From: an uncultured Gammaproteobacteria bacterium
Lineage (GTDB): Bacteria > Pseudomonadota > Gammaproteobacteria > Ga0077536
Reading direction: 5' to 3'
Length of the DNA stretch: 64,000 nucleotides
Assembly: GCA_963976285.1 (NCBI GenBank)
Contig: CAXBJY010000008.1
Location: forward strand, 14,414-78,413
Under the pieces are notes generated by a model. That model was not told the origin of the DNA, did no database searches, and was given only the letters and a program-made list of their open reading frames with translations. A program made the translations under genes and the position numbers. Of this stretch, positions 37,498 to 54,594 are shown piece by piece. Positions within the stretch are counted from its first letter, which is position 1. Every line of letters begins with the position of its first letter.

Positions 37498-38286
37498 TTA
37501 TTGCCGCGCGGTCGTCCCGCCGTCGATCGGCAACACGACGCCGTTGCAGTAACTCGCTTCGTCCGAGGCGAGATAGAGACAGCCGTAGGCCATTTCCTCG
37601 GGGGTGCCGGCGCGTTGCATCGGCGTGAGCACGTCGGCGACGGCCTTGTCGTCGAACAGGTTCATCACGGGGGAGATCATCGGCGTGTCGGTATAACCCG
37701 GACACACGCAATTCGAGCGGATCCCGTCCATCGCGTACGTTGCCGACATCGCGCGGGTCAGGTTGATCATCGCGCCCTTGCCGGCGCAGTACGTATGCGC
37801 CGTGGTCATGCCCTGAAAACCCGAGATACTCGCGACGTTCACGATCGAACCGGCACCCTGTTTTTGCATGATCGGGATCACGCCACGGCACATGTAGAAA
37901 CACGAGTCGAGGTTGATCGCCATCACCTCGGCCCAGTGCTCGGGGGTCGTGTTCGCGATGTCCTGCATCGACCCCGGACTCTGCTCCTGACCCCAGCTCC
38001 AGCCCACCCCGGCGGCATGCACGAGGATGTCGATGCGGCCATAAGCCTCCAGCGTCGCCGCGATGACCTTCTCGGCGCCAGCCAGGGTCGACAGATCACT
38101 CGCGACGACGAAGCCGTCGCCGCCCGCGGCGCGCGTTTGCGCCAGCGTGTCGTCGAGCGCGGACTGCGTCCGCGACACCCCGACCACCCGCGCACCTTCA
38201 CGGCCGAACAACACCATCGTCGCCTCGCCGATCCCCGTACCGGCGCCGGTAATGATCGCTACCTTGTCCTGAACCCGTCCGCTCAT
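37498..38286 (-). CDS. SDR family oxidoreductase
   Basis: KVAIITGAGTGIGEATMVLF, NVASISG, YCAGKGAMINLTRAMS (YxxxK). Confidence 0.8.
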   Translation of the reverse strand: MSGRVQDKVAIITGAGTGIGEATMVLFGREGARVVGVSRTQSALDDTLAQTRAAGGDGFVVASDLSTLAGAEKVIAATLEAYGRIDILVHAAGVGWSWGQEQSPGSMQDIANTTPEHWAEVMAINLDSCFYMCRGVIPIMQKQGAGSIVNVASISGFQGMTTAHTYCAGKGAMINLTRAMSATYAMDGIRSNCVCPGYTDTPMISPVMNLFDDKAVADVLTPMQRAGTPEEMAYGCLYLASDEASYCNGVVLPIDGGTTARQ

Positions 38287-38387
38287 ATCGCTTCCTCGCT
38301 CGCTCGCTGTGACCGCGGTGGCGCGCCTGCTGTGGCAGGTTCACGCGTGGTGGTTGTGCCGCGGTCGTTTGCAGATAAAATTGTATG

Positions 38388-38402
38388 ACAAAAATGTTTT
38401 GT
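38388..38402. promoter_or_regulatory. perfect palindrome ACAAAA-ATG-TTTTGT in the AT-rich SDR/GntR divergent intergenic region (candidate operator)
   Basis: Seen directly in sequence; roughly 70 nt upstream of the preferred GntR start and 100 nt from the divergent SDR start. Confidence 0.35.
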
Positions 38403-38471
38403 GATGCCCCGGATGACGTCTGCTACGCACGCCACACCATTGTGACTTCCTCATCAAAACGTGTCAGCCGC

Positions 38472-39131
38472 ATGAGTTCGCCCGACAGCGTCGCCGCGGC
38501 GCTGCTCGACGGCATCAAGACCGGGCGCTACGTGCCCGGCCAGCGACTCATCGAAGCGGATCTGACCGCCGAACTCGACGTCAGCCGCGGCCCCGTGCGC
38601 GAGGCGCTGAAACGGCTCGCCGCGGAAGGCGTCGTGCAGTTGATCCCGCATCGCGGCGCCTACATCCGCAAACTGACCCGGCGCGAAGTCATGGACATAC
38701 TCACGATCCAGGAAGTCCTCACCGGGCTCGCGGCGCGCCTCGCGGCCGAACAAATCGACATTGGCGGCAACCGCGACCGCTTCCGCAGCGCGTATGAAAA
38801 ACTCGTCGCGCTGCGCGACCTGCCGGACGCGGACGTCATGCTCGACGAGCGCGCGCGCTTCTACGAAACGCTCGTGACCCTGAGCGACAACCGCGAATTG
38901 TCGCGTTTCGTGCCGATCCCGCAGACAAACCTGCTGCGTACGCAGCTAAGCCACTACGCGGGCGCACGCGAACGCGCGCGCCAGTTCAAGGACTACGACA
39001 GCATCGCGAAGCACGTGCTCGCCGGCAACGGGCCGGGCGCGGAATCCGTCATGCAACGCCACATCCGCAACAGCCGCCTGAGTATCGATCGCCTCGGCGA
39101 CGAAGCGTTCGCGAACGCTGCGCTCGCCTGA
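38472..39131 (+). CDS. GntR family transcriptional regulator (FadR/FCD subfamily)
   Basis: Met 30 of track ORF 38385..39131. …GQRLIEADLTAELDVSRGPVREALKRLAAEGVVQLIPHRGAYIRK (GntR wHTH) + FCD-like C-terminal helical domain. Confidence 0.75.
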   Translation: MSSPDSVAAALLDGIKTGRYVPGQRLIEADLTAELDVSRGPVREALKRLAAEGVVQLIPHRGAYIRKLTRREVMDILTIQEVLTGLAARLAAEQIDIGGNRDRFRSAYEKLVALRDLPDADVMLDERARFYETLVTLSDNRELSRFVPIPQTNLLRTQLSHYAGARERARQFKDYDSIAKHVLAGNGPGAESVMQRHIRNSRLSIDRLGDEAFANAALA

Positions 39132-39219: not shown

Positions 39220-40512
39220 TCAGACGATCAGTACGGGCCGATCGCTGAATTCGCCGTCGACATCGAGCGGCAGCACGTGCGCATTACCGCCGCGTTTGCT
39301 CGGGGTGTCGTCGTATTCACGCAGCTCGAGCCGCGCGAGCTGATTGCGGTGCACTTCATCGGGACCGTCGGCGATACGAATCAGACGGGCGTTCGCATAG
39401 GCGAATGGCAGTCCGTAATCGGTCGTCACCCCGGCCGCGCCGAACGCCTGGATCGCCCAGTCGATCACCTGGCAGGCCATGTTCGGCACGACGACCTTGA
39501 TCATCGCGATTTCCTTGCGCGCGACCTTGTTGCCGACCGTGTCCATCATGTAGGCGGCCTTTAACGTCAACAGACGCGCCTGCTCGATCATGATCCGCGA
39601 TTCCGCGATGCGTTCCTGGGTGACGGTCTGCTCGGACACCGGCTTGCCGAACGCAACCCGCTGTTTCGTGCGCCGGCACATGCGCTCGAGCGCACGTTCG
39701 GCGGCACCGATCAGGCGCATGCAGTGGTGGATGCGACCGGGCCCGAGGCGGCCCTGGGCGATTTCGAAGCCGCGCCCCTCGCCGAGCAGCATGTTCGATA
39801 CCGGCACGCGGACGTTATCGAAATGCACTTCGGCATGGCCGTGCGGGGCGTCGTCGAAACCGAATACCGGCAGGATCCGTTTCATCTTGATCCCGGCCGT
39901 GTCCATCGGCACGAGCACCATCGATTGCTGTTCGTGACGGTTCGGGTTGTCGGGGTCGGTCTTGCCCATGACGATGAGAATCTTACAGCGCGGATCGGGC
40001 GCACCCGAGGTCCACCACTTGCGGCCATTGATCACATACTCATCGCCGTCGCGTTCGATGCTCGTTTCGATGTTCGTCGCGTCCGACGAGGCGACCTCGA
40101 TCTCCGTCATTGCGAACGCGGAGCGGATCTTGCCGTCGAGCAGCGGCTGCAACCAGTCGCGCTTGTGTTCTTCCGTGCCGTAACGCGCGATGACTTCCAT
40201 GTTGCCGGTGTCCGGGGCGGAACAATTGAACACTTCCGGCGCGAGCGGCGAACGACCCATTTCCTCGCACAGCGGCGCGTATTCGAGGTTCGTGAGACCG
40301 GCCCCGAGATCGCTCTCGGGCAGGAACAGGTTCCACAACCCGGCCGCTTTCGCTTTCTCTTTCAACTCCTCGAGCAGCGGGTACGGCGCCCAGCGATCGC
40401 CGTCGTCGATCTGCGCGAACATTTGCGCTTCGTTCGGATAGATGTGCTCGATCATGAACTCGCGCACTTGCGCGAGCAGTTGCTGGGTTTTGTCACTGTA
40501 CTCAAAGTTCAT
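39220..40512 (-). CDS. acyl-CoA dehydrogenase family protein
   Basis: Met 29 of track ORF, GGGGAGCG SD. …[39 protein letters not shown]… (ACAD middle-domain signature), C-terminal …[35 protein letters not shown]…. Confidence 0.85.
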
Positions 40513-40547: not shown

Positions 40548-41735
40548 TTACAATCGTTCGATCAATGTCGCGTTCGCCATGCCGCCGCTTTCGCACATCG
40601 TCTGCAGGCCATAACGGCCGTTCGTCTGTTCGAGTGCGCGGATCAGGTTCGCGGTGAGCCGGCCGCCGGACGCGCCGACCGGATGGCCGAGCGCGATCGC
40701 GCCGCCGAAGCGGTTCAGGCGTTCGGGATCGGTATTGAATTCCTTCTCCCAGGCCAGCGGCACCGACGCGAACGCTTCGTTCACCTCGTACGCATCAATC
40801 TGATCGAGGCTCAATCCCGCGCGTTCGAGCAGTTTACGGGTGGCCGGAATGATCCCGGTCAACATCATGATTGGATCGTCGCCACTGACCGCGAAATGCG
40901 TGACCGCCGCGCGCGCCTGCAGGCCGAGACGTTCCGCCATACCCGCTTCCATAACGAGCATCGCGCTCGCGCCATCCGTCACCTGGCTCGCGTTCCCGGC
41001 CGTCACGGACCAGTTGATGTCGGGGAAGCGCGCCGCCATGTCCGCGTTTTCGAACGCGGCTTTCAGCGTACCGAGCTTCTCCAGGGTCGAGTTCGCGCGG
41101 ATCCCCTCGTCGCGCGCGACGAGCACCGTCGTACCGTCGCGCGCCGTTTCAATCGGCGCAATATCGCGCGCCGCATCGGCGCGATCCGCTTCCGCGCGCT
41201 GATGCGAGCGCAGCGCAAAGCGATCCTGGGTTTCGCGGTCGAGCTGCCAGCGCGCCGCGATCAACTCCGCGGAAATGCCCTGGCGCACGAGCCCTTCGGG
41301 GTAGCGCGCGTGAAAGCGGCTGCCCTCGTTATCCTTGCCCATGCGGTTCACCCGCATCGGTACGACGGACATCATCTCGACCCCGCCGGCGATCACGGCG
41401 TCATACGCGCCCGCGATCACGCCCTGCGCCGCGAAGTCGAGCGCCTGCTGCGCGGAGCCGCATTTGCGGTCGAGCGTCACCGCCGGCACGGACTCCGGAA
41501 AACCGGCCGCGAGCACGGCCTGGCGTCCGATGTTGCCGGACTGTTCGGCCACCTGTATCACGCAACCGCTGATCACGTCGTCGACGATCGCCGGGTCGAT
41601 GCCCGTACGTTCAATCAACGCCGCGAGCACGTGCGCGTACAGGTTCACCGGGTGCAGGCTCGCGAGCGCGCCGTCTTCGCGCGCGCGGCCAAACGGCGAG
41701 CGCACGATATCGACAATCACGGCGCGGCGAGTCAT
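40548..41735 (-). CDS. acetyl-CoA C-acyltransferase (thiolase)
   Basis: …[13 protein letters not shown] (active-site Cys), …NEAFASV…, …[11 protein letters not shown]…[13 protein letters not shown] (C-terminal Cys/His signatures). Confidence 0.85.
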
Positions 41736-41783: not shown

Positions 41784-43244
41784 TCAGGCATTTTTTCTCA
41801 GCGACAATTCGAGACCTTCCGTTTTCAGCTGCACGACCGGCGAGTTCGCGATGTTCATGAGCCGCCGCACCTGTTCGAGTTCGGGGCTCGACAGTAGCGG
41901 ATAGGTTTGTTTCACCGGGCCCGCGGCCCACATTTTCTTCAGATCGGCTTCCGGCACGAGCGCGCGCAGGATCAGTTCGTCGTCGTTGTCCGTGCCGTAT
42001 TGCTTGCGCAGATCCTCGATGCTCGGTTGCGGCGGCGGATTCGCCGCGACTTCCTTTGCCCGCGACGAGGACATGATCTTGTCGAGGATATTCGGATCGA
42101 TCGGCGCGGCCGGTTCGCCGTAGAACTTGCACGCATACTGCACGACCTCGTCCGGGACGACGGAGTAGCGCTCGCCGGTGACGATGTTCAGCACGGCTTG
42201 CGTACCGACGAGCTGGCTGAACGGGGTGGCCATGCCGGGATACCCGAGTTCGTGGCGCACGACGGCCGTTTCCGTCAGCACGTCGTCGAGACGATCCATC
42301 ATGTTCTGCTGCGCGAGCTGGGCCTTCAGGGTGCCGACCATGCCGCCCGGCACCTGGTGCTGGATCGACAGCACATCGTATTCCGCATACTGGTTCACGA
42401 GAAAACCCGCGGCCTTGCCCACTTGCTCGAAATGCCGGGAGACCGGCGGCACGAGGCTCATGTCGACATCGTGCGTGTGCCCGAGCAGTTCGAGATTGCG
42501 GGTCATGATTTCGACCGATGGCACGGACGGCCCGTTCGCCATCGGCCGCACGGCCGTGTGCAGGATCGTGACCCCGAGGTCGACGGCGTCGAGATAGGCT
42601 TTCGCGGATTGGCCGAGCAGGTTGTTCGAATGGAACTCGATCGGTTTGCCGCGCGATTTTTCGATGATCGCCGGCAGCAGGGTCGTCAGGCGTTCCTTCT
42701 CCAGCACCCCGGCCGTGTCGTAGAGCAGGATCGTGTCGATGTCGGGACACACGGACAATTTATCGGCCTTGTCGGCGTAGTACTCGTCCGTGTGCACGGG
42801 GCTCAAGGTGAACATGATCGCGCCGGCGACTTCGGAGCCGAACTCCTTCGCGACTTTCGCGAGGCGATGCGTCTTGTCGTTATTGAACAGCACGTCGTAG
42901 ACCCAGAAGCTGCGGCAGCCGTGCACGTTCAGTTGCCGCATCCACGCATCCATGAGCGCATCCGGGGTGACCCCGAACGTGACCGAGGCATTCGAGCGCA
43001 TGCCCGCGCGGATCGGGGTGCGCGGCATCGCCGCGGCCATCAGGTCGAGACCTTCCCACGGGTTTTCCTGGCAGTGCCGGATCATCACCTCGAACATGGA
43101 CGAGCCCGTCAGGTCGATCACGCGGTAGCCGCTGCGGTCGATCATCGGCGCCACGGGTAACGCCATGCCGGCCTGCATGCGCATTCCCCACAGACTCTGT
43201 TGTCCGTCGCGCATCGTTTCGTCGAGCAGTTCGATATGGGCCAT
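41784..43244 (-). CDS. 5S-type carboxyltransferase subunit (oxaloacetate decarboxylase alpha / pyruvate carboxylase B-subunit-like TIM barrel + conserved carboxylase domain; no biotinyl domain)
   Basis: ATG (aa 4 of track ORF) with AAGGAG SD 10 nt upstream. MAHIELLDETMRDGQQSLW (the RDxxQS motif of pyruvate carboxyltransferase domains). 5-nt gap to the upstream biotin carboxylase gene. Confidence 0.75.
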   Translation of the reverse strand: MAHIELLDETMRDGQQSLWGMRMQAGMALPVAPMIDRSGYRVIDLTGSSMFEVMIRHCQENPWEGLDLMAAAMPRTPIRAGMRSNASVTFGVTPDALMDAWMRQLNVHGCRSFWVYDVLFNNDKTHRLAKVAKEFGSEVAGAIMFTLSPVHTDEYYADKADKLSVCPDIDTILLYDTAGVLEKERLTTLLPAIIEKSRGKPIEFHSNNLLGQSAKAYLDAVDLGVTILHTAVRPMANGPSVPSVEIMTRNLELLGHTHDVDMSLVPPVSRHFEQVGKAAGFLVNQYAEYDVLSIQHQVPGGMVGTLKAQLAQQNMMDRLDDVLTETAVVRHELGYPGMATPFSQLVGTQAVLNIVTGERYSVVPDEVVQYACKFYGEPAAPIDPNILDKIMSSSRAKEVAANPPPQPSIEDLRKQYGTDNDDELILRALVPEADLKKMWAAGPVKQTYPLLSSPELEQVRRLMNIANSPVVQLKTEGLELSLRKNA

Positions 43245-43249
43245 TGCCG

Positions 43250-44617
43250 TCAAGCTCCTTCAGTTTGAAAGCCGCTGAGCACGCTTTGTTCGAGCCAGCG
43301 GGTAGAAATTTCGTTAGCCATAAAGTCCGGGTGTTTCACGATGTGCCGGAGCAGCGGCAGGTTCGTCACGATGCCGTCGATCGTGAATTCGTCGAGCGCC
43401 GCGGCGAGGCGTTCGACCGCGCTCGCGCGATCGTTCGCGGTGACGATCAGTTTGCCGATCATCGAGTCGTAGTACGGCGGTACGAGGTAGCCGTCGGCGC
43501 AGTGGCTGTCGACCCGGATCCCGGCGCCACGCGGCGGCTGCCACGACGTGATCCGGCCCGGGCTCGGGCGAAAATCGTGCGCCGCGTCCTCGGCGTTGAT
43601 GCGGCATTCGATCGAATGCCGGCTTACCGTGATCGCCGACTGATCGAAGCTCACGGGCTCGCCACCGGCAACCCTGAACTGCAGTTGCACGAGATCGGCG
43701 CCGGTCACCTGTTCGCTCACCGGATGCTCCACCTGGATCCGCGTATTCACCTCGATGAAGAACACTTCTTCATGGTCGACGTCGTAGAGAAACTCGACCG
43801 TGCCGGCATTGCGGTATTTCAGCTTCGACAGCAGGTTCACCGCGGCCGCATGCAGCTTGCCGCGCACGTGTTCCGGCATGATCGCGCACGGCGCTTCCTC
43901 GATCACCTTCTGGTAACGCCGCTGCGTGGAACAGTCTCGCTCACCGAAATGCACGACCTGCCCGGTGCCGTCGCCGAGCACTTGCACTTCGACGTGACGC
44001 GCATTGCCGACGAAGCGCTCCATATAGAGCGTGCCGTCGCCGAATGCTTCGAGCGCTTCGGTACTCGCCTTGTCGAACGACCCGGCGAGATCCGCCGGGG
44101 TGCGCGCGATGAACATGCCGCGCCCGCCGCCGCCGGCCGACGCTTTCATGACGACCGGATAGCCGATGTCCTCGGCCGCCCGTTGCGCGCTCTGCACATC
44201 GGCGATCGAATCCGTGCCGGGCACGAGCGGCACCCCGGCTTCGGCGGCGATCGCGCGCGCCCGCAGTTTGTCGCCGAGCGCGTCGATCACGTCCGCATCC
44301 GGCCCGACGAATGTGATGTCGTGCTCGCGGCACAGGTTCGCGAGCGACGCGCGCTCCGACAGGAAACCGTAGCCGGGATGCAGCGCGTCGCAGCCCGTTT
44401 GTTGCGCCGCGTGCAGCAGCAGTTTCGCCTCGAGATAACTCTGTTTCGATGGCGCCGGCCCGATCACGACCGCGCGATCGGCGAGACGCGCGGCGGCGCT
44501 GTCGCGATCCGCTGCGGATAACACCTGCACGGTTTCGATCCCGAGCGCCTGCGCGGCACGAATGATGCGCACGGCGATTTCGCCCCGGTTCGCGACGAGC
44601 ACCCGGTTTATCGGCAT
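43250..44617 (-). CDS. biotin carboxylase (ATP-grasp; AccC-like, 455 aa)
   Basis: MPINRVLVANRGEIAVRIIRAAQALGIETV…GYGFLSE…, glycine-rich loop GGGGRGM, typical BC. Confidence 0.85.
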   Translation of the reverse strand: MPINRVLVANRGEIAVRIIRAAQALGIETVQVLSAADRDSAAARLADRAVVIGPAPSKQSYLEAKLLLHAAQQTGCDALHPGYGFLSERASLANLCREHDITFVGPDADVIDALGDKLRARAIAAEAGVPLVPGTDSIADVQSAQRAAEDIGYPVVMKASAGGGGRGMFIARTPADLAGSFDKASTEALEAFGDGTLYMERFVGNARHVEVQVLGDGTGQVVHFGERDCSTQRRYQKVIEEAPCAIMPEHVRGKLHAAAVNLLSKLKYRNAGTVEFLYDVDHEEVFFIEVNTRIQVEHPVSEQVTGADLVQLQFRVAGGEPVSFDQSAITVSRHSIECRINAEDAAHDFRPSPGRITSWQPPRGAGIRVDSHCADGYLVPPYYDSMIGKLIVTANDRASAVERLAAALDEFTIDGIVTNLPLLRHIVKHPDFMANEISTRWLEQSVLSGFQTEGA

Positions 44618-44677
44618 GCGCGGATCACCCCGTGGGTTTCGCGGCGAACGTGCGTTGGTCGTCGTTGCTGCATCGGT

Positions 44678-45184
44678 TCAGGCGCCCGGTTCGATGATCA
44701 CGAGCAGTTGCCCGAACTCGACCATCTGCCCGTCTTCGATACAGATCTCGCGCACGACCCCGGCGGTCCCGGCGCTGACGGGGGTAAACAGTTTCATCAC
44801 CTCGATCAGGCACACTTCCGTGCCCGGCTCAACGGCCTGGCCCACTTCGACGTACGGTGGCGCACCGGGCTTCGGCGCGCGGTAGAACGTACCGAGGTTC
44901 GGCGCGGTGATCCCGATCATGCCGTCCGGCACCGTGGCGGCAGCACTCGCTGGAGCAGCCCCTGCAACGGGCGCCGGCTCACCCGGAGCGGCCGCGGGCG
45001 CGGTGGCAGCGGGCGGGGTCGCGGCGATGGCCGCCGGCGCGGCCGGCGCCGCCGGTCCGCTCGCTTGCGGATCGTTCGACAGGAAAATTTCCAGCCCGTC
45101 CGTCTTTACATACAGTTCGTCCCAGTCGGACTGGTTGAACAATTCGACCAGATTGTCGACGTCTCGCGGATCAGGATTGGCCAT
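44678..45184 (-). CDS. biotin carboxyl carrier protein (AccB-like) with Ala/Pro-rich linker
   Basis: C-terminal biotinyl domain …GTEVCLIEVMKLFTPVSAGTAGVVREI… (EVMKL in place of the canonical EAMKM biotinylation motif); long PAAPAAPAA linker. Confidence 0.75.
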   Translation of the reverse strand: MANPDPRDVDNLVELFNQSDWDELYVKTDGLEIFLSNDPQASGPAAPAAPAAIAATPPAATAPAAAPGEPAPVAGAAPASAAATVPDGMIGITAPNLGTFYRAPKPGAPPYVEVGQAVEPGTEVCLIEVMKLFTPVSAGTAGVVREICIEDGQMVEFGQLLVIIEPGA

Positions 45185-45218
45185 CGGGCACGGTCCTCGT
45201 CATCTGTGTTTGAGCGTT

Positions 45219-46967
45219 TCAGGTTTGTTCACGGTGCAGTGCATACAGCAAGACCGGCAGCACATGGCCGGCGACGATCTGTTGCACCCCGGCAGTCAGC
45301 GCGGCGTCGAGTCCGGCATCGCTTTCGAGCGCGCCACCGGTGACGCTCTTCGCCTCGCCGATCAGCGCACCGAGGCGTTCCGGATCTTCGCCGCCCTCGA
45401 GCGTGTTCAGGTCGAGCGTGTCCGGCGGCACCCCGTCGGCTTTCGCGATCACGCGCAGCGGACACAGGCGACTCGCCCATGCCGTCAGCGTCGCGAGCGC
45501 CGGATCGTCGAATTCGTTCGGGTGCACGACCGCGAGTTCGCCGTCGTAGACCTTGCCACTGATCCCGTCCACCGTAACCGTGCGCTCGGCGAGTTGGGCC
45601 ACGCTGCCCTCGCCGCAACCGACGATGCACGGCACCCCGAGCGCGCGGCTCACGACCGCCGCGTGGGACGTCGAACCGCCGTGATCGGTGACGACGGCGA
45701 CGCTCGCAATCATGCCGTGCACGTCTTCGGGACTCGTACTCGGCCGCGCCAGTACCACCGCCTCACCGGCGGCGGCGCGCGTTTCCGCCGCGTCCGCGTT
45801 CGTCACGACGACCCCGGCCCCGACACCCTGGCACGCCGGTTCACCGCTTGCGAGCACGGTGGCGGCATCGGCCGCGCCAGGCGCGAGGTGTGGCTGCAAT
45901 AATGTGCGCACCTGTTCGGCGGACACGCGCGACAGCGCCGTGGCTTCATCGATCAAACCGTCGGCGACGAGGTCGAGCGCAAAGCGCACGGCCGCGGCCG
46001 GCGCGCGCTTCGCGGCGCGTGACTGCAACAGGAACAACTGTCCCTGCTGCACCGTGAACTCGATGTCCTGTACGTCCGCGCCGTCGCGTTCGAGCACGGC
46101 GGCGGCGGCGAGCAGTTCGTCGTGCACCGCGGGCAGCGCCTCGCGCAGGCTCGACAGCGGCTCCGGCGTGAACTTGCCGGACACGACGTCTTCGCCCTGC
46201 GCGCGGTGCAGGTATTCCCCGTAAGGTTCGCGATCGCCGTTCAGCGGATTGCGACTGAACAGGACGCCGGTGCCGGAGTTGTCGTCGAGATTACCGAACA
46301 CCATCGCCTGGATCGTGACCGCGGTGCCGAGGTTCTCCGGCAGATTGTGATGCTTGCGGTAACGCCGCGCGCGGCGCGAATTGCACGAATCGAACACGGC
46401 CGTCACGGCGTCGTGCAACTGCTCGCGCGCGCCGTCGGGGACGGACTTGCCGGCGGCGCGCGCGATCTCCGCGAGCCAGCTGGCCGGCTCGGCATCGGCA
46501 GCGAGCGCCGGCACCGTCGCCTTCATGACGATCCCGGCATACAGTTCAAGGAAGCGGCGGTGCGTGTCGCGCGCGAACGCAGCGCTGCCGGACTGGGCCG
46601 CGAGCGCGGCTTCCGTGTCGGCGTTAATACCGAGATTCAGCACCGTGTCCATCATGCCCGGCATCGAGATCGCCGCGCCCGAACGCACCGACACGAGCAG
46701 CGGCGATCCGCCGTGACCGAACGTGCGGCCGCTCTGCGCTTCGAGCCAGGCGATCGCCGTGTCCAGTTCTTCGACGAGGCCGTCCGGCATGGCCCCCGTG
46801 TCGAGATAGGCGGCGCACGCCTCGGTTGTGACCACGACGGCCGGCGGCACGTTCAGGCCGAGTTCGCGCATGCGCGCGATCGACCACGCCTTGCCCCCGA
46901 TCAACTCGCGCGACGGCAGCGAGCTGCCATCGATCGTGACTATCCATTTTCCGCCTGGCGCCGTCAT
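45219..46967 (-). CDS. PPDK/PEP-synthase-like protein: N-terminal nucleotide-binding (ATP-grasp) domain + phosphohistidine swivel domain, lacking the C-terminal PEP/pyruvate TIM-barrel
   Basis: …LIGGKAWSIARM…PLLVSVRSGAAISMPGMMDTVLNLGIN… (PPDK_N signature); …VVTDHGGSTSHAAVVSRALGVPCIVG… (PEP-utilizers His domain). Confidence 0.7.
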   Translation of the reverse strand: MTAPGGKWIVTIDGSSLPSRELIGGKAWSIARMRELGLNVPPAVVVTTEACAAYLDTGAMPDGLVEELDTAIAWLEAQSGRTFGHGGSPLLVSVRSGAAISMPGMMDTVLNLGINADTEAALAAQSGSAAFARDTHRRFLELYAGIVMKATVPALAADAEPASWLAEIARAAGKSVPDGAREQLHDAVTAVFDSCNSRRARRYRKHHNLPENLGTAVTIQAMVFGNLDDNSGTGVLFSRNPLNGDREPYGEYLHRAQGEDVVSGKFTPEPLSSLREALPAVHDELLAAAAVLERDGADVQDIEFTVQQGQLFLLQSRAAKRAPAAAVRFALDLVADGLIDEATALSRVSAEQVRTLLQPHLAPGAADAATVLASGEPACQGVGAGVVVTNADAAETRAAAGEAVVLARPSTSPEDVHGMIASVAVVTDHGGSTSHAAVVSRALGVPCIVGCGEGSVAQLAERTVTVDGISGKVYDGELAVVHPNEFDDPALATLTAWASRLCPLRVIAKADGVPPDTLDLNTLEGGEDPERLGALIGEAKSVTGGALESDAGLDAALTAGVQQIVAGHVLPVLLYALHREQT

Positions 46968-46977
46968 GCTCCCGTTC

Positions 46978-47580
46978 CTATTCGTCGCGCACGCGTGCGA
47001 GCACGCGCAGCAGGTCTTCGTGCAGTTCGAACCACACCGTGTGGTAACTCTCGATCGTCGCGTCGCTCACCCATGCCGGGTCGCCGTCTTCCGCGCGCTC
47101 GAGCGCGTGTTCGAGTTTCTCACCATAACGCGCGAAGCGCGGCGCGGATGCGGCGAACGTTTGCACGATCGGCTCGAAGCGCTCATGGATAGCCGCGAGC
47201 CGGTCGAGGATCGCCGCATCGTAATCGGGATCGCTGTGATCGTTCGGCATCGCCTGGCCGCCGATATCGACGAGCTGCCAGTCCGTGATCGCCTGTTTCA
47301 ATTCTGTATTGATCAACTCGAACCGATCGTAAGCCGCGACGAACGCCGGATCATCCCGCAATGCCGCGCAACGCACGGGATACTGGCCCTCGAGGATCAT
47401 GTGCCCGGCCGGGGTGAGCAGGTATTTGCCCTGCGCCGCGGCCGCGCGCCCCGTGTTGACAGCCCGTTCGAGCAGGGGCGCGAGTGCCGCCTGCGGCTGC
47501 CCCGTCAGTTCGGCGAGCGCGGCGGCATCGGCGTGTTTCTTGATCGCGATGGCGTGCAGCAGTTCGTGCATCGTGTTCAT
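46978..47580 (-). CDS. hypothetical protein (200 aa), translationally coupled (ATGA overlap) to the upstream ~520-aa gene
   Basis: MNTMHELLHAIAIKKHADAAALAELTGQPQAALAPLLERAVNTGRAAAAQGKYLLTPAGHMILE… no recognisable catalytic motif; possible winged-helix-like N-terminus. Confidence 0.5.
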   Translation of the reverse strand: MNTMHELLHAIAIKKHADAAALAELTGQPQAALAPLLERAVNTGRAAAAQGKYLLTPAGHMILEGQYPVRCAALRDDPAFVAAYDRFELINTELKQAITDWQLVDIGGQAMPNDHSDPDYDAAILDRLAAIHERFEPIVQTFAASAPRFARYGEKLEHALERAEDGDPAWVSDATIESYHTVWFELHEDLLRVLARVRDE

Positions 47581-49139
47581 TCGCCGCTCCTGCGCAGGCG
47601 TTCGACGTCGTCACGCGAGAGCCCCGCGCCGGCGCCCTTGAGGCGCCGGGAGTGGATCTGATCGAGACCATACAGTTCGTCCGCGAGTGGCGTGTGCGCG
47701 TTGTACTTGACCCAGGTTTCACACAGGTGACGGTATTTGTCCGTGCACACCTGCGGCACGAACTCGCGCGCGCGGCGATTGTATTCCGCGAGCCCGAGCA
47801 CCCCGGCCGAGGTCGTGTAGCGATCGATTTTCGGCGGCAGATGCGTGATCCCGGGCTGCAGTTCACCGCACGTGCGCGTGAAGTTGCCGTCGGCGAGGAT
47901 CGAATACGGGATGTGCGAGTACACGCGGGTCGGCGCGTTCGAATGCTTCATCATGTTGTAGCCGTGCAGTTGCTGCGACGGGTTCGAGATATAGCCGACG
48001 AGTTCGCCGAGCACGGCGTTCGCGTACTCGTCATTGAACAGCGGCCGGAAACGCTCGGCGCGTTCGTCGACCATCATCCAGTCTTCCACCGCGTAGACCC
48101 CGGCGACGTGCGCGAGATCCTTGACGATGCCGAAGTACACCATCGCCCCGGCGTCGATCATCTGATCGCGCGACCAGCCGGCGATCCGCCGCCACAGTTT
48201 CGACGTCGCGTCTTTCACCCGCACGGTCAGATCCTCGAACGCCTCGGTGAGCGTTTCGCGGCTGTCCATGGCCACGGGGACGTAACCTTCCGTGAGTACA
48301 TCGGACGTGTACAGGCCCACCCCGACGACATGGTGTGCCTTGAACTCGGGCTCCGATTCGAACGAACCCCAGTCGTCCATCAGGTAGAAATGACAGCCTT
48401 CGACGGCCATCGGCACGGTGAGGTTGTTGTACGGCACGTCGGCGGCGACGTCGTCGAGCCAGGGAAAGTCGCTCTCCGAAAGATCCATGTAATCGCGCAC
48501 GATCATCTCGCGCGTGTCCGACAATTTATACGGCCCGGAATTATGCAGGCTCACCCGGCTTTCGCAGGAAATGAGGAAGCCGTACTGCGATGCCGCCGCC
48601 ATGAACGCCTGCGCGGCGGTATGCAGGCGATCGCCCTCGCGGCATTCATACATATCGGCGTGAAACACCTGCAGCCGGCGTTCCGGCAGCAGTTGCGCGC
48701 GATGACCGTATTCGCTGTTTGTAATGTGACCGTCGTTGCGGTGCCAGGAGAGCTGAAAGCGCTTCCAGAAATCCATCACCGTAATGAGGTCTTCCACCGC
48801 GTCCGTCGGCCTGAGCAAGCCCATGTTCATGAGCAGTTCGCGCCCGAGCAGGTAGAACGACAAGCCCCAGCCCATGCTCGGGTTCTGGATCTTGATCCCC
48901 ATGTTGCGCGCGCGATCGCCGATGTCCTCGGCCGGCAGCGCGCGATCGATTTTGCGCAGCAGCTCCGGGTAGCGATAGAACGCCATCATGTAGGACAGCA
49001 ACATGTACGGCGACACGGGGAACAGTTTCGACTCCTGCACCGTGCGGGTGAGGCACAGCCAGTACGTCTCGTCCGCGAGTTGCTGGATCAGCGTGTTCGT
49101 CTCGAGCAGTTGTTCGTAGCTGATCCGCTTGTCGGTCAT
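47577..49139 (-). CDS. hypothetical protein (~520 aa; no recognisable domain); start uncertain (ATG 49139 or GTG 49160)
   Basis: Coding-like, aromatic-rich composition (MTDKRISYEQLLETNTLIQQLADETYWLCLTRT…); embedded between the two PEP-utilizing-enzyme modules. Confidence 0.5.
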   Translation of the reverse strand: MTDKRISYEQLLETNTLIQQLADETYWLCLTRTVQESKLFPVSPYMLLSYMMAFYRYPELLRKIDRALPAEDIGDRARNMGIKIQNPSMGWGLSFYLLGRELLMNMGLLRPTDAVEDLITVMDFWKRFQLSWHRNDGHITNSEYGHRAQLLPERRLQVFHADMYECREGDRLHTAAQAFMAAASQYGFLISCESRVSLHNSGPYKLSDTREMIVRDYMDLSESDFPWLDDVAADVPYNNLTVPMAVEGCHFYLMDDWGSFESEPEFKAHHVVGVGLYTSDVLTEGYVPVAMDSRETLTEAFEDLTVRVKDATSKLWRRIAGWSRDQMIDAGAMVYFGIVKDLAHVAGVYAVEDWMMVDERAERFRPLFNDEYANAVLGELVGYISNPSQQLHGYNMMKHSNAPTRVYSHIPYSILADGNFTRTCGELQPGITHLPPKIDRYTTSAGVLGLAEYNRRAREFVPQVCTDKYRHLCETWVKYNAHTPLADELYGLDQIHSRRLKGAGAGLSRDDVERLRRSGE

Positions 49140-49149
49140 CGTCGGGTGC

Positions 49150-49905
49150 TCAGGCTTCACCGGCGCGCGCGTGACGCCAGATCCGCGCCGTCATCGCGAT
49201 GCCCTGCTGGTAGGCTTCGGCCGTTTTCGCCGCCGCGGTCGTCTCCATGATGACCGTATCGCCCTCGATGATGTCGGCCACTTTCGCGTTCATGAAACAC
49301 GGGATGCCGTATTCGCGGGTGAGGATGCCGAGGTGTGAGCGCACCGTGCCGCCGGCGCAGATCACCCCGGCGAACTGCTCGAGGATCGGCGCGGTTAACG
49401 TGCCACCGGAATCGTCGATGACGGCAATCGTGCCGGGTGGCACGCCGTCGCTCAGGTATTTCAGCACGCGATCGCTCGAGCGCAGGTAGCGCGCCGTGCC
49501 CGTCGTGTACTCGGGATAGCCGACGACGTTATCCCCGATCCCGCACAACACCCGGCCGTCTTCGTCGGTTTCCGGGGTCGGCGCTTCCGGGTGGGCAAAA
49601 CTGAATTGCGTCGCGTCGTCGTCGAGCCCCTCGGCGGGCTTGTACGCCTCCGGTCGCTCGCGGACCGAGGCGAGCGCGGACCAGTCGTAGCGATGGCCGA
49701 GTTCGAGCAGGCGCGCATCGATTGCGCGCAGGGCCCCGGCGTCGATCACGGACGGCGCACTGCCGAACACGAACGCGTCCCAGGTTTCACCGCTCGTCGC
49801 GAGATGTTCGCGCACGCGGGTTTTGATGGCGGCATGGAAGGCCTCGACGATGGCGAATTCAGCTTCGTCGCCGTACTTGTCCCCATCGTTGTAGTGGCTC
49901 GCCAT
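49150..49905 (-). CDS. PEP-utilizing-enzyme mobile (phosphohistidine swivel) domain protein with ~150-aa N-terminal region of unknown function
   Basis: Met 80 of track ORF 49150..50142 (MASHYNDGDKYGDE…). C-terminus …ICAGGTVRSHLGILTREYGIPCFMNAKVADIIEGDTVIME… = PEP-utilizers domain. Confidence 0.6.
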   Translation of the reverse strand: MASHYNDGDKYGDEAEFAIVEAFHAAIKTRVREHLATSGETWDAFVFGSAPSVIDAGALRAIDARLLELGHRYDWSALASVRERPEAYKPAEGLDDDATQFSFAHPEAPTPETDEDGRVLCGIGDNVVGYPEYTTGTARYLRSSDRVLKYLSDGVPPGTIAVIDDSGGTLTAPILEQFAGVICAGGTVRSHLGILTREYGIPCFMNAKVADIIEGDTVIMETTAAAKTAEAYQQGIAMTARIWRHARAGEA

Positions 49906-50300
49906 GGCATCCCCATCGATCCGCTTGAACCCGTCCGCCCGGCGCTGCTCGCGGCTCTTGATTGTGCGCGAACGGGGTCCGGCAGGATGTCGTAGTTTGG
50001 AATTCGTGTCAAACCTGATAGGACGATATTGTCCTACAATCCGGACCATACCGGGTGCCAAAATCGCCCGCCTCGCGACCCCGCTCGCACCGCTCCCGCG
50101 ACCCTGGCCATGGCCATGAAGCCGGCGCACGAACGCCGCCAATCACCGCCGCCGGGTACCTGCCAGCCGCCCCGCCAGCGCGCGCGGGTACCGCCGTTGG
50201 CACGGGCTGCCAAAGCGCCGCGGTAGCGCCACCGGCCACCGCCCCGGCGCAACTTGAACGGCGCGTTCTTCGCCGTGAGAATAGGTGAGCGAAACTTCCA

Positions 50301-51122
50301 ATGGAGATCGAGCACATGGCCAGCAGCGCCGCCGCAACCGCCAGCCCCGCAGTCCCCGTGATCCGCACGGATAACGCCGGGATCACGCAATTGATGCTGA
50401 ACGACCCGGACAAGTACAACACGCTGTCGCGCGAAGTCATCGACGACATGCTCACGCATCTCGACAACATCGCCGCCGATGAATCGGTGCGCGTGGTCGT
50501 GATCGCGGCCCGCGGCAAGGCGTTTTGCAGCGGTCACAACCTGAAGCAGATGCACGCAAACCACGATCGGGCCTACTACGAGGCCCTGCTGACGGACTGC
50601 TCGCGCATGATGCAGAGCATTGTTGCGCTGCCGCAGCCGGTGATTGCCCGGGTGCAGGGCATCGCCACGGCGGCCGGTTGCCAGCTCGTCGCGAGCTGCG
50701 ATCTCGCCATCGCCGCGGCGAGCGCCGCGTTCGCCACGAACGGGATCAACAACGGCCTGTTCTGCGCCACCCCGGCGGTGGCCGTCAGCCGCACGGTCGC
50801 GCGCAAGCACGCGCTCGAAATGCTGCTCACGGGCGATTTCGTCGACGCAGCGCGGGCGGCGGACATCGGCCTCGTCAATCACGTCGTCCCCGATGACGAA
50901 CTCGATGCCGCTATCGACGCGCTCGCGGGCAAACTCGCCGGCCAGTCGCAGTATGCGCTGCGTCTCGGCAAGGCCTCGTTCAATCGCCAGTTGCACGAAC
51001 CGCTCGACCGCGCGTATCGCGGCGCCGCGAGCGATCTCGTGTGTAACCTGCTCGCCGACGACGGGGTCGAGGGGGTCACCGCGTTTCTCGAGAAACGTAA
51101 ACCGCGGTGGCAGAACGACTAG
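50301..51122 (+). CDS. enoyl-CoA hydratase/isomerase family protein
   Basis: …VVVIAARGKAFCSGHNLKQM…, …VIARVQGIATAAGCQLVASCDLAIAA… (crotonase fold oxyanion-hole segments). Confidence 0.8.
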   Translation: MEIEHMASSAAATASPAVPVIRTDNAGITQLMLNDPDKYNTLSREVIDDMLTHLDNIAADESVRVVVIAARGKAFCSGHNLKQMHANHDRAYYEALLTDCSRMMQSIVALPQPVIARVQGIATAAGCQLVASCDLAIAAASAAFATNGINNGLFCATPAVAVSRTVARKHALEMLLTGDFVDAARAADIGLVNHVVPDDELDAAIDALAGKLAGQSQYALRLGKASFNRQLHEPLDRAYRGAASDLVCNLLADDGVEGVTAFLEKRKPRWQND

Positions 51123-51394
51123 CAGGCCGGCAGCATCGAACCCGTCGCGTTGCGCGCAGAACATATATATAAAGACGCCGCGCGGCGAACACGACAACGC
51201 CGACAGCGCCGACAGCGCTGCCCCCGGCACCCGGGCGGCGGGGTCGCGGCGCTTATCGAGGACGTTGACGTCAGTCATCGATAATTTTTCCGGCTGAATG
51301 TCGCTCCTCGCGCCCAGGAATGCGTAATAATGGCTCCCGGCGCGAACCCATTCAGTCACCAGGATCGCCTCTACTAAGAAATCGGACCGACACC

Positions 51395-53038
51395 ATGAGC
51401 ACATCGACAAACATCTACGAACAAGACCTGCCGAAGGTTGAAGCGAACTACACCCCGCTGTCGCCGCTGAGTACGATCGAGCGCGCGGCCTCCGTGTATC
51501 CCACCCAGCTTGCCGTCGTCCACGGCGATCGCGAGTTCACGTGGGCGGAAACGTTCGCGCGCTGCCGCCAGCTCGCCTCCGCGCTGAGCCAGCGCGGGAT
51601 CGGCCTCGGCGACACGGTCGCCGTACTCGCGACGAATATCCCGGCGTTCTACGAAGGCCTGTTCGGGATCCCGGCCACGGGCGCCGTGATCAACCCGATC
51701 AACATCCGCCTCGATGCCGAAGCCATCGCGTTCATTCTCGACCACGGCGAAGCGAAGGTGCTGTTCACGGATACGGAATTCGCGCCGGTCGTGAGCGAGG
51801 CGCTGAAAATCTGCAAAGTGAAACCGCTCGTGATCGACATCGCCGACGAAGCGGCGCATTGCCACGACCGGATCGGCGAGATCGAATACGAGGACTTCAT
51901 CGCGGCCGGCGATCCGGAGTATCCATGGGAACTGCCGAAGGACGAATGGCAGGCCATCGCGCTGTGCTACACGTCCGGCACCACCGGCAACCCGAAGGGC
52001 GTGGTCACGCATCACCGCGGCGCGTACCTGAATGCGATTGGCAACATCATGGCGTGGACCCTGCCGCACAACCCGGTGTACCTGTGGACCTTGCCGATGT
52101 TTCATTGCTGCGGCTGGTGCTACCCGTGGTCGATCGCGATGCAGGGCGGCACGAACGTATGCCTGCGACGGATCGCGGCGGCGGATATCTACGACGCGAT
52201 CGACCGCCACGGGGTGACGCATTTCTGCGGCGCGCCGATCGTGCTGAATTTCATCGTCAACGCGAGCGAAGAAGAAAAGTGCGTGCCGAAGACCCCGATC
52301 AACGTGATGACCGCCGGGGCCGCGCCGCCGGCGGCGATCCTGAAATCGATGGCCGATCAGGGCTTCAAGGTGACGCACGCCTATGGCCTGACGGAAGTTT
52401 ACGGCCCGGCCGTGTTCACGGCGCACCAACCGTCGTGGGATTCGCTGTCGAGCCTCGAACTCGCGGAAAAACGCATCCAGCAGGGCGTGCGCTACAACGT
52501 GCTCGAGGATCTCGACGTGCTCGACCCGGAGACGATGAAGCCCGTGCCGCGTGACGGCGAGACGATCGGTGAAATCATGTTCAAGGGCAATGTCGTCATG
52601 CGCGGTTATCTGAAAAACCCGAAGGCGACGCAGGAATCGCTCGCGGACGGCTGGTTTCACTCCGGCGACCTCGGGGTGATGCACCCGGAGAACTATATCC
52701 AGCTGAAGGACCGCTCGAAGGACATCATCATTTCCGGCGGCGAGAATATCTCCTCGATCGAAGTCGAAGAAGTGTTGTACAAACACCCGCACGTGCTCGA
52801 AGCCGCCGTCGTCGCGCGGCCGGACGAAAAGTGGGGCGAGACGCCGTGCGCGTTCGTGGCCCTGAAACCATCGGCACCGGACGTGAGCGCGGACGAGCTG
52901 ATCAAGTATTGCCGCGAGCACATCGCGCACTTCAAAGCGCCGAAGACGATCGTTTTCCGCGAACTGCCGAAAACCTCGACCGGCAAGATCCAGAAATTCA
53001 AACTGCGGGTTGAAGCCGACGAGATGGGATCGCTGTAA
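51395..53038 (+). CDS. AMP-dependent synthetase/ligase (acyl-CoA synthetase)
   Basis: Met within track ORF 51320..53038. …YTSGTTGNPKGV (AMP-binding motif), …YGLTEV…, …GWFHSGDLG…, …ELPKTSTGKIQK (C-terminal Lys motif). Confidence 0.8.
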   Translation: MSTSTNIYEQDLPKVEANYTPLSPLSTIERAASVYPTQLAVVHGDREFTWAETFARCRQLASALSQRGIGLGDTVAVLATNIPAFYEGLFGIPATGAVINPINIRLDAEAIAFILDHGEAKVLFTDTEFAPVVSEALKICKVKPLVIDIADEAAHCHDRIGEIEYEDFIAAGDPEYPWELPKDEWQAIALCYTSGTTGNPKGVVTHHRGAYLNAIGNIMAWTLPHNPVYLWTLPMFHCCGWCYPWSIAMQGGTNVCLRRIAAADIYDAIDRHGVTHFCGAPIVLNFIVNASEEEKCVPKTPINVMTAGAAPPAAILKSMADQGFKVTHAYGLTEVYGPAVFTAHQPSWDSLSSLELAEKRIQQGVRYNVLEDLDVLDPETMKPVPRDGETIGEIMFKGNVVMRGYLKNPKATQESLADGWFHSGDLGVMHPENYIQLKDRSKDIIISGGENISSIEVEEVLYKHPHVLEAAVVARPDEKWGETPCAFVALKPSAPDVSADELIKYCREHIAHFKAPKTIVFRELPKTSTGKIQKFKLRVEADEMGSL

Positions 53039-54566: not shown

Positions 54567-54594
54567 TCGCCCCCTGGATGCGCGGCGTGAAGCA

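Follow-up and report, generated by a model that had tools for sequence, protein, structure and literature searches.

An operon joining a divergent biotin-dependent carboxylase to a multi-component kinase-like module: a candidate phosphorylation–carboxylation pathway for ketones in bacteria

A 64,000-nucleotide stretch of contig CAXBJY010000008.1 from an uncultured gammaproteobacterium (hereafter, the window) contains a minus-strand operon in which a three-subunit biotin-dependent carboxylase is encoded together with a truncated pyruvate phosphate dikinase (PPDK), a separate swivel-domain protein and two proteins without family assignment, U520 and U200, of 520 and 200 amino acids (aa). From its domain content, the co-conservation of its genes, and the clade and active site of its carboxyltransferase (CT), we infer the chemical steps, the order of phosphotransfer and the substrate, and consider it likely, with a probability of roughly 60%, that the locus encodes a catabolic pathway in which a ketone is phosphorylated and then carboxylated. 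The truncated PPDK, which resembles VadK of Mycobacterium tuberculosis, would phosphorylate its own swivel histidine from ATP. The phosphoryl group would pass, either directly or via the histidine of the swivel protein, to a site formed by U520 and U200 and then to a small-molecule substrate. The biotin carboxyl carrier protein (BCCP), the biotin carboxylase (BC) and the divergent 5S-type CT would carboxylate the carbon next to the keto group to give a beta-keto acid. A phosphatase, probably of the SurE or HAD family here and Y_phosphatase3 in other genomes, would strip the phosphate, an AMP-forming ligase would make the CoA thioester, and a thiolase would cleave it into acetyl-CoA and an acyl-CoA.

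A preliminary description of the window had proposed the same succession of ATP activation, biotin-dependent carboxylation to a beta-keto acid, CoA ligation and thiolysis, and this succession matches the experimentally established logic of the Hpe, Acv and Xcc pathways for 4-hydroxyacetophenone and acetovanillone, characterised between 2022 and 2025. In Rhodococcus rhodochrous GD02, HpeHI phosphorylates the phenolic hydroxyl of 4-hydroxyacetophenone or acetovanillone, the acetyl methyl group is then carboxylated by the biotin enzyme HpeCBA, which accepts only the phosphorylated intermediate, HpeD takes the phosphate off the product, and HpeE and HpeF carry out the ligation to CoA and the cleavage (PMC9618137). 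The kinase HpeHI has two components and is homologous to rifampin phosphotransferase (PMC12167813). Sphingobium sp. SYK-6 has the syntenic acvABCDEF cluster (bioRxiv 10.1101/2022.04.28.489975), and in Novosphingobium the same carboxylase genes are combined with an unrelated kinase, MarK (PMC12624787). The view that ketone carboxylases are known only as hydantoinase-type enzymes, on which the preliminary description relied, is therefore outdated: HpeCBA, AcvCDE and XccABC are biotin-dependent aryl-methyl-ketone carboxylases acting after ATP-dependent phosphorylation (PMC9618137; bioRxiv 10.1101/2022.04.28.489975; PMC12167813; PMC12624787). Because such enzymes are already characterised, the principle is not new. 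In the characterised systems, the phosphate is placed on a phenolic hydroxyl, not on an enol, and is later removed by a phosphatase. Literature on acetone or ketone carboxylases combining biotin with proteins resembling phosphoenolpyruvate (PEP) synthase yielded only the Hpe/Acv/MarK work and hydantoinase-type enzymes, and the third kinase architecture reported here, with a CT clade of its own, is not described in the literature that we found.

Organization and co-conservation of the operon

Nine open reading frames with high third-position GC run head to tail on the minus strand from 49905 to 39220, with intergenic distances of 10, −4, 10, 34, 60, 5, 48 and 35 nt:

49150..49905, minus strand: swivel protein, 251 aa; Pfam PF00391 at residues 156–221, N-terminal ~150 aa without assignment
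47577..49139, minus strand: U520, 520 aa; no family assignment
46978..47580, minus strand: U200, 200 aa; no family assignment; modelled as an N-terminal winged helix and a C-terminal four-helix bundle
45219..46967, minus strand: truncated PPDK, 582 aa; Pfam PPDK_N (ATP-grasp) and PEP-utilizers; no PEP/pyruvate TIM barrel
44678..45184, minus strand: BCCP, 168 aa; Pfam Biotin_lipoyl; TIGR00531, 122 bits (cutoff 115)
43250..44617, minus strand: BC, 455 aa; Pfam Biotin_carb_N, CPSase_L_D2 and Biotin_carb_C; NF006367, 623 bits (cutoff 597)
41784..43244, minus strand: 5S-type CT, 486 aa; Pfam PYC_OADA, HMGL-like below cutoff; MRDGQQSLW motif; no biotinyl domain
40548..41735, minus strand: thiolase, 395 aa; Pfam Thiolase_N and Thiolase_C; proposed to cleave the beta-ketoacyl-CoA
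39220..40512, minus strand: acyl-CoA dehydrogenase, 430 aa; Pfam ACAD domains; last gene of the same-strand run, accessory and outside the conserved core

The swivel reading frame could be extended to a TTG start at 50142, but on an identical public contig the gene is called from the ATG at 49905; the dehydrogenase start at 40512 likewise agrees with the gene called there (L001), and this gene neighbours the cluster in few loci only. The preliminary description had the coordinates, strand and domains of the first seven genes right, as judged by reading frames and Pfam, as well as the 5-nt gap between BC and CT, the thiolase and dehydrogenase genes downstream, and the enoyl-CoA hydratase and CoA ligase genes upstream on the other strand. 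Of the several ATGA overlaps it reported, one is genuine, that between the U520 and U200 genes; the other gaps are 5–60 nt long.

The window proteins were mapped by tblastn onto 80 of the 401 loci with U520 relatives, and counts were made on the 52 whose sequence continues for 7.5 kb or more on the downstream side of U520. In 42 of these both the truncated PPDK and the CT are encoded, in the other 10 neither is; a single one of the two was found in none. All 42 complete loci (type 1) encode U200 and BC, 41 encode the swivel protein, and in 38 a thiolase gene follows that for the CT. Their usual order is swivel protein, U520, (in many loci) an AMP-binding protein, U200, PPDK-N protein, BCCP, BC, CT and thiolase, followed by a short-chain dehydrogenase (SDR) or a GntR regulator. 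This core order recurs in Gammaproteobacteria, Alphaproteobacteria and Rhodococcus, an arrangement far beyond chance. Since the truncated PPDK and the CT either co-occur or are jointly absent, the distribution of these genes supports the view that the kinase-like proteins and the carboxylase form one functional unit, and the tie between the two proposed from the window alone is borne out by their co-conservation.

Variants of the arrangement are found on plasmids. In Novosphingobium resinovorum pSA1 the same parts occur in a rearranged order, whereas in Rhodococcus pyridinivorans pA they are in order and followed by genes for an OB-fold protein, an SCP-x-type thiolase, a phosphatase of the tyrosine-phosphatase family (Y_phosphatase3) and an SRPBCC protein. 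A second thiolase of the SCP-x type, 36–39% identical to the Rhodococcus one (L088, 10449–11998), lies near the cluster in 31 loci, in many type-1 loci upstream of the swivel gene; there is none in the window. The Rhodococcus enzyme is paired with the OB-fold (DUF35-like) protein. More generally, the flanking genes vary: the window has beta-oxidation genes, L086 has genes for two P450s, a luciferase-like oxygenase, a B12-dependent mutase and two CoA-transferases, and Rhodococcus has those for an acyl-CoA dehydrogenase and the SRPBCC protein. Such variation suggests a core module that serves a variety of peripheral pathways, with substrates that may differ between lineages.

The 10 loci that encode neither the PPDK-N protein nor the CT (type 2) have genes for Y_phosphatase3, swivel protein, U520, U200 and SDR, the phosphatase gene being upstream in nine of them; in one annotated example (L084) a NUDIX protein and an alpha/beta-hydrolase come next. 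As these loci carry paralogous swivel, U520 and U200 genes without a truncated PPDK or a carboxylase, the three are a module in its own right. When shorter flanks are included there are 16 type-2 loci, and for 10 of them the 80 fetched loci also include a type-1 locus from the same assembly (e.g. L068, on the MAG (metagenome-assembled genome) chromosome OZ244144.1). The type-2 module may draw on a truncated PPDK in trans.

A distinct clade of carboxyltransferases with an altered metal site

The best PDB sequence matches of the window CT are PycB, OadA and 5S (5ks8, 2nx9 and 1rqb). Nevertheless, its best NCBIfam score is 320 bits against the cutoff of 402 of a domain model, and the PycB/OadA/5S equivalog models give 135–277 bits against cutoffs of 718–1182; with all such models compared, it exceeds none of their cutoffs. 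Pfam detects no Biotin_lipoyl domain on the CT, BCCP being encoded by a separate gene.

For comparison we used CTs from a Rhizobium plasmid with acvABCDEF-like synteny, a plasmid of Rhodococcus sp. JS3073 with hpeHICBADE-like synteny, two MarK-type plasmids, three loci lacking a kinase gene, and one OadA; the Acv- and Hpe-type sequences are thus syntenic plasmid stand-ins used in place of XccA, HpeA and AcvE themselves. The window CT is 37% identical to the Acv-type (Rhizobium stand-in), 35% to the Hpe-type (JS3073 stand-in), 37% to the MarK-type and 30% to OadA. Among Proteobacteria, type-1 CTs share 69–98% identity, and that of the window is 48% identical to the type-1 CT of Rhodococcus. In a simple neighbor-joining tree, with support taken on unrooted splits (300 bootstraps), proteobacterial type-1 CTs were separated from all others at 100%. 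A second split, also at 100%, separated from the rest a larger group that includes the Rhodococcus type-1 CT and that of Rhodococcus opacus pRho-G13 (L096), a locus entered without classification by kinase type. Acv- and MarK-linked CTs formed their own clade, likewise with 100% support. The CT family as a whole is joined to different kinases in different loci. In this tree, CT clade follows kinase type and not taxonomy. The Hpe-type CT of Rhodococcus is closer to the Rhizobium Acv-type CT (50% identity) than to the type-1 CT of Rhodococcus (only 34%). The window CT is thus not orthologous to AcvE/HpeA-type CTs, from which it is separated at 100% while their stand-ins are 50% identical to each other. 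It also falls outside PycB/OadA, in a separate clade at 100% and with 30% identity to OadA.

The canonical active site comprises RDAHQS, a carbamylated lysine in xKDxAGLL, and HxH. In the window CT the corresponding motifs are RDGQQS, LLYDTAGVL (Lys to Tyr) and FHSNN (second His to Asn), so that two of the four metal ligands are replaced. The tyrosine-containing motif was found in 105 and the H-x-N motif in 119 of 120 close homologues. Proteobacterial type-1 CTs have RDGQQS, LLYDTAGVL and either FHSNN or FHANN, and actinobacterial ones have Glu instead of Lys but keep HxH; in Acv- and MarK-type CTs both Lys and HxH are kept. Low family scores, replacement of active-site residues and strict co-occurrence with kinase-like genes together indicate that this CT is not a pyruvate carboxylase.

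Three plasmid loci, from Burkholderia sp. THE68 (L092), Cnuibacter physcomitrellae (L093) and Sulfitobacter faviae (L094), encode a related CT with BCCP and BC but have no kinase gene nearby, and their CTs retain the canonical Lys and HxH. In Cnuibacter the carboxylase set is followed by BioY, 3-oxoacid CoA-transferase A/B and thiolase genes, while in Burkholderia it lies beside genes for acetoacetate decarboxylase, an acetate symporter, carbonic anhydrase and biotin synthesis. These sets may represent kinase-independent biotin carboxylases yielding a 3-oxoacid; we know of no characterisation of this type.

The kinase-like module

The truncated PPDK aligns with PPDKs in the PDB (E = 1e−112 over residues 172–521), the alignment ending at about PPDK residue 550. 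It contains an ATP-grasp domain and a swivel domain with the catalytic histidine motif GGSTSHAAV, but ends at 582 aa and has no C-terminal PEP/pyruvate-binding TIM barrel. Residues 6–580 match positions 9–531 of the 534 in NCBIfam model NF004531 (720 bits against a cutoff of 456), which we take to be the family of M. tuberculosis Rv1127c (VadK). VadK is itself a truncated PPDK that autophosphorylates His422 with ATP and Mg2+, and has been read as a regulatory histidine kinase of the methylcitrate cycle, without a defined phospho-acceptor (PMC13400623). The window protein is accordingly predicted to be a VadK-like autophosphorylating dikinase component. The separate swivel protein has a second candidate phospho-histidine, in the motif GGTVRSH, which is invariant in 77 homologues, and we propose that it acts as a second phospho-carrier.

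Neither U520 nor U200 has any Pfam or NCBIfam match even at E ≤ 10, and for U520 no fold relative could be detected in the PDB. U200 is predicted to combine an N-terminal MarR-like winged helix with the C-terminal helical bundle. Fusions are informative here. U520 and U200 are fused in P0228, in P0230 and in representatives of 726 and 728 aa, and in a more distant subfamily an N-terminal PEP-utilizers domain is fused to a U520-like domain (P0416, P0453, P0496, P0425). The latter architecture provides the strongest evidence that U520 would work directly with a phospho-histidine swivel domain, in which case it would occupy the position of the acceptor-substrate domain of PPDK, PEP synthase, rifampin phosphotransferase and HpeH. 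We therefore propose U520 as the component for acceptor-substrate binding and phosphotransfer and U200 as its partner subunit; the two are probably the substrate side of the kinase module.

The module has little in common with the known kinases. The swivel protein resembles the AcvA/HpeH-type protein only over the swivel domain (32% identity over 76 aa), and the truncated PPDK is only 26% identical over 172 aa to the AcvB/HpeI-type ATP-grasp protein. A counterpart of the 480-aa rifampin-binding-like part of the AcvA/HpeH-type protein was not found by tblastn, and the U520 profile compared with the AcvA-like protein by hhalign gave a probability of 0.5%. AcvB-like and MarK-like queries produced no tblastn match at E < 1e−6, and neither the window nor its relatives have a MarK homologue. 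Judging from these comparisons, the module is of an undescribed multi-component type, neither HpeHI-like nor MarK-like.

Phosphatases and other genes around the operon

Six further genes flank the operon:

38385..39131, plus strand: GntR/FCD transcription regulator (Pfam); a GntR homologue (45–60% identical) flanks the cluster in many loci
37498..38286, minus strand: SDR, 262 aa; Pfam adh_short; recurrent companion of both cluster types
36685..37473, plus strand: SurE-family phosphatase, 262 aa; Pfam SurE; NF001490, 325 bits (cutoff 233)
36052..36660, plus strand: HAD-family hydrolase, 202 aa; Pfam Hydrolase; weak match to glucose-1-phosphatase and HAD-IA models
50301..51122, plus strand: enoyl-CoA hydratase, divergent; NF006008, 370 bits (cutoff 313); accessory, syntenic in a subset of gammaproteobacterial loci
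51320..53038, plus strand: AMP-forming acyl-CoA synthetase; NF006020, 891 bits (cutoff 677); proposed to activate the beta-keto acid

The GntR/FCD protein is a probable local regulator. The SDR gene follows that for thiolase in gammaproteobacterial loci and that for U200 in all 10 type-2 loci (53–57% identity), and the acyl-CoA synthetase is syntenic in gammaproteobacterial loci at 72–95% identity. When the CoA ligase, hydratase, SDR and dehydrogenase were typed with NCBIfam models, only generic families came up, which gave no clue to the substrate.

Homologues of SurE (48–60% identical) adjoin the cluster in 18 of the 42 type-1 loci, including most alphaproteobacterial ones, which suggests a link of the window SurE to the pathway. 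The HAD hydrolase of the window is not similar to the AcvF/HpeD-type HAD. No homologue of the HAD of Acv or MarK clusters was found in the window or in type-1 loci. The HAD of the window is a different one and, like its SurE, is encoded on the opposite strand, 4–5 kb downstream from the CT gene.

Alternative explanations

Several observations weigh against the phosphorylation–carboxylation pathway as we propose it. The literature that we found holds no characterised member of this cluster type. There is no phosphatase in the window operon itself: SurE and HAD lie ~1.7–3 kb past its last gene on the other strand, and the SurE passes the model of a housekeeping nucleotidase. A phosphatase was detected within ±10 kb in only 19 of the 42 type-1 loci and in the other 23 none was, although 10-kb flanks undercount distant phosphatases, the window SurE itself being ~10 kb from U520. 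VadK was proposed as a regulatory and not a small-molecule kinase (PMC13400623), the predicted fold of U200 is of a DNA-binding type, and the presence of two swivel domains in one module is without explanation. The chemistry of the CT may differ from that of HpeCBA, since two canonical metal ligands are lost. Finally, ten loci have swivel, U520 and U200 genes without any carboxylase, so the kinase-like module is not bound to carboxylation alone.

The alternative that survives best, although we regard it as unlikely, is a special case of the proposed pathway: the locus would be a functional equivalent of Hpe/Acv/Xcc, with 4-hydroxyacetophenone, acetovanillone or a close phenolic methyl ketone as its substrate and a non-homologous kinase in place of HpeHI or MarK. 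Pathway logic and CT superfamily are indeed shared, kinase swapping is documented by the presence of MarK-type and AcvAB-type clusters in one CT clade, and the SDR is conserved, like Hped in Aromatoleum. In addition, the Y_phosphatase3 of the Rhodococcus operon and of nine of 10 type-2 loci has the PTP (protein tyrosine phosphatase) fold, and phosphatases of this fold typically act on aryl phosphates. However, the CT is only 35–37% identical to Acv-/Hpe-type CTs, has an altered metal site and belongs to a fully supported clade that tracks kinase type and not taxonomy. Moreover, a single plasmid of Rhodococcus oxybenzonivorans bears the cluster together with a gene for an HpeH-like kinase, metagenomes from the open ocean, lakes, groundwater and peat contain the cluster very commonly, and its neighbours are beta-oxidation, P450, luciferase-like and mutase genes, not aromatic ring pathways.

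Less probable still is the version put forward in the preliminary description, in which the PPDK-derived module would turn a plain methyl ketone (acetone, butanone, 2-alkanones or isoprenoid ketones) into an enol phosphate and the modified CT would carboxylate it with loss of the phosphate, making a phosphatase unnecessary. The four kinase-module proteins would then be a new class of multi-component small-molecule dikinase for unfunctionalised ketones (acetone, butanone, carotenoid- or isoprenoid-derived methyl ketones), which we consider equally doubtful. This version draws on the PPDK lineage of the ATP-grasp/swivel protein, whose native chemistry is enol phosphorylation, and on the loss of metal ligands from the CT; in pyruvate carboxylase, the metal polarises the carbonyl to give the enolate. 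The abundance of the cluster in aquatic metagenomes, the lack of a phosphatase within reach in 23 of the 42 type-1 loci, and the neighbouring beta-oxidation, thiolase and CoA-transferase genes point the same way. By contrast, the recurrent linkage of phosphatase genes (SurE beside the cluster in most loci of Alphaproteobacteria, Y_phosphatase3 within the operon of Rhodococcus and ahead of the module in type 2) argues mildly against it, and a module found with a phosphatase and an SDR but no carboxylase, as in type 2, fits a removable handle better. The kinase-less CTs encoded beside 3-oxoacid CoA-transferase and thiolase also count against it, since kinase-free ketone carboxylation may then already be possible in the superfamily. 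Furthermore, every characterised relative of the carboxylase takes a substrate phosphorylated on a phenolic hydroxyl (PMC9618137).

Within the proposed pathway itself, we lean slightly towards a phosphate carried on a hydroxyl 'handle', as in the Hpe pathway, over one on the enol oxygen. The handle would account for the recurrence of phosphatases (SurE in 18 of 42 type-1 loci, Y_phosphatase3 in the Rhodococcus operon and nine of 10 type-2 loci) and for the existence of type-2 loci without a carboxylase; PPDK ancestry, the altered metal site of the CT and the 23 type-1 loci with no detected phosphatase speak for the enol phosphate.

A regulatory phosphorelay resembling VadK or the phosphotransferase system, in which the PPDK-like protein, swivel protein, U520 and U200 would control the carboxylase or its transcription with the winged-helix U200 as output, strikes us as quite improbable. 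It is consistent with the reading of VadK as a regulatory histidine kinase (PMC13400623), with two phospho-histidine carriers that in series resemble a relay, and with the MarR-like winged helix predicted for U200. Yet it would require four large and very highly conserved proteins in a catabolic operon that is already flanked by a GntR regulator; the fusions of U520 with U200 and of a swivel domain with a U520-like domain are enzyme-like architectures, and the association of type 2 with phosphatases and an SDR points to a metabolite.

The remaining candidate, a two-subunit anaplerotic pyruvate (or 2-oxoglutarate) carboxylase beside unrelated genes, which the preliminary description had kept as its fallback, was rejected as highly improbable: public annotation of close homologues as 'pyruvate carboxylase' or 'oxaloacetate decarboxylase alpha' and best PDB matches to PycB, OadA and 5S are outweighed by CT scores of at most 320 bits against cutoffs of 402–1182 over all PycB/OadA/5S models, the presence of Tyr for the carbamylated Lys and of Asn for the second metal His (substitutions that hardly vary across the clade), the lack of a fused biotinyl domain, 30% identity to OadA and the strict co-occurrence with kinase-like genes.

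Origin and distribution

The window has an identical counterpart in a TARA ocean metagenome contig, and the nearest genome is an uncultured gammaproteobacterial MAG (94% identity over U520); we could thus reject the idea that it is the xcc cluster of Aromatoleum itself. On the public TARA contig (L001, 12883–14078) the thiolase is called as two fragments of 292 and 106 aa, probably owing to an assembly frameshift of that contig, as the gene is intact in the window (40548–41735) and in L003.

Homologues of the CT number in the thousands, and the best 120, each with 78% identity or more, carry the annotation 'pyruvate carboxylase' or 'oxaloacetate decarboxylase alpha'. U520 has 1064 homologues, those listed being 64–98% identical and from Gamma- and Alphaproteobacteria, and U200 has 1590. 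A scan of about 185,000 species-level genomes (one genome per species) revealed U520 relatives, forming more than 1000 protein clusters, in 401, which come from ocean, lakes, groundwater, glacier-fed streams and peat; the carriers are mostly uncultured aquatic and soil Proteobacteria. Cultured strains are represented among the 80 fetched loci by Roseiarcus fermentans DSM 24875 and Chachezhania sediminis CAU 1508, and searches of plasmids contributed Novosphingobium resinovorum pSA1, Rhodococcus pyridinivorans pA and R. oxybenzonivorans.

Other features of the window

A type I secretion pair (a C39-peptidase ABC transporter and an AprE-type adaptor; 53214–56865, minus strand) lies beside the CoA ligase gene, and an unusually long TamA-like Omp85 protein (1091 aa) is encoded with TamB at 5975–13116 (plus strand); both are unrelated to the operon. 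Between 58000 and 64000 the GC content falls from about 0.65 to 0.48–0.52. This region encodes a 586-aa protein without Pfam match (59282–61042), a PIN_12 protein (61153–62250) and a protein with HNH and CTD11 domains of 'ABC-three-component' systems (62358–63134), and looks like a horizontally acquired, defence-type island.

Significance

That biotin enzymes can carboxylate phosphorylated ketones has been known only since 2022, and the known cases are confined to phenolic ketones from lignin in a small range of bacteria. Here the same strategy appears to be built with a third, undescribed kinase, partnered by a CT with a rebuilt active site; two of the four kinase-module proteins lack a family assignment, and one of them, U520, has no detectable fold relative in the PDB. 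In databases the genes of the locus are carried as 'pyruvate carboxylase' and 'hypothetical protein'. Identification of the substrate would correct this widespread misannotation, define a new dikinase family and yield a concrete phospho-acceptor hypothesis for truncated PPDKs like VadK, a group to which a virulence factor of M. tuberculosis belongs. If the module should prove to be an enol-phosphate dikinase, the abundance of the cluster in metagenomes would imply a major, unrecognised, oxygen-independent sink for volatile ketones, and would hint at the type of partner that receives phosphate from VadK-type truncated PPDKs. As cultured carriers exist, the question is directly testable.

Comparison with known systems

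With PycB, OadA and 5S the window CT shares the TIM-barrel CT fold and the PYC_OADA domain, but it differs from them in lacking a biotinyl domain, in scoring below threshold, in its altered metal ligands and in an identity of ~30%. The hydantoinase-type acetone and acetophenone carboxylases (Acx, Apc) offer a comparable overall reaction, in which ketone, bicarbonate and ATP give a beta-keto acid via a phosphorylated intermediate; these are unrelated proteins without biotin, whereas the locus uses a biotin carboxylase. Genes of this other superfamily of ATP-dependent carboxylases and lactamases occur in the window as well, outside the operon and within 15 kb of the biotin system. They comprise a hydantoinase A/B pair (27009–31161, plus strand), whose B subunit has a C-terminal Acetone_carb_G-like segment and which is followed by an isochorismatase gene (31139–31834), and a second Hydantoinase_A gene (15057–17093, minus strand). 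Their best NCBIfam matches are caprolactamase and acetophenone carboxylase (Apc) subunits, all far below cutoff.

Like VadK, the PPDK of the locus consists of an ATP-grasp and a phospho-histidine domain without a TIM barrel, a likeness judged by domain content and the NF004531 score. The protein of the locus shares its operon with a carboxylase, U520, U200 and a further swivel protein. MarK-type clusters, e.g. that of Novosphingobium aromaticivorans (Saro_1862), join a UPF0261/Tm-1-like kinase to BCCP, BC, CT and HAD genes and are also found on plasmids of Sphingomonas bisphenolicum (pBAR1) and Pseudomonas putida YC-AE1. Since they combine the same carboxylase superfamily with an unrelated kinase, the superfamily is modular (PMC12624787). 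MarK, however, is a single-protein kinase of another fold, and the CTs of its clusters group with the Acv-type and not with the clade of the locus.

The closest parallels are the Hpe, Acv and Xcc systems, XccABC of Aromatoleum aromaticum EbN1 being the anaerobic counterpart of the Hpe/Acv carboxylation. Their logic is shared by the locus as we interpret it: phosphorylation by an ATP-dependent, histidine-mediated dikinase, formation of a beta-keto acid by a biotin carboxylase of three subunits whose 5S-type CT is free-standing, CoA activation and C–C cleavage, with an associated phosphatase. The BC of the locus is ~50% and its CT 35–38% identical to those of Acv- and Hpe-type loci, and the order BCCP–BC–CT, with three separate subunits, is the same as in the Rhizobium Acv-type locus. 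They differ in that the operon contains no NagD-type HAD, that its CT belongs to a well-supported clade of its own, marked by Tyr for Lys and Asn for His at the metal site, and that ATP-grasp and swivel superfamily domains are all that the kinases have in common, U520 and U200 replacing the rifampin-binding-like domain of HpeH and a thiolase standing in the place of HpeF or VceAB.

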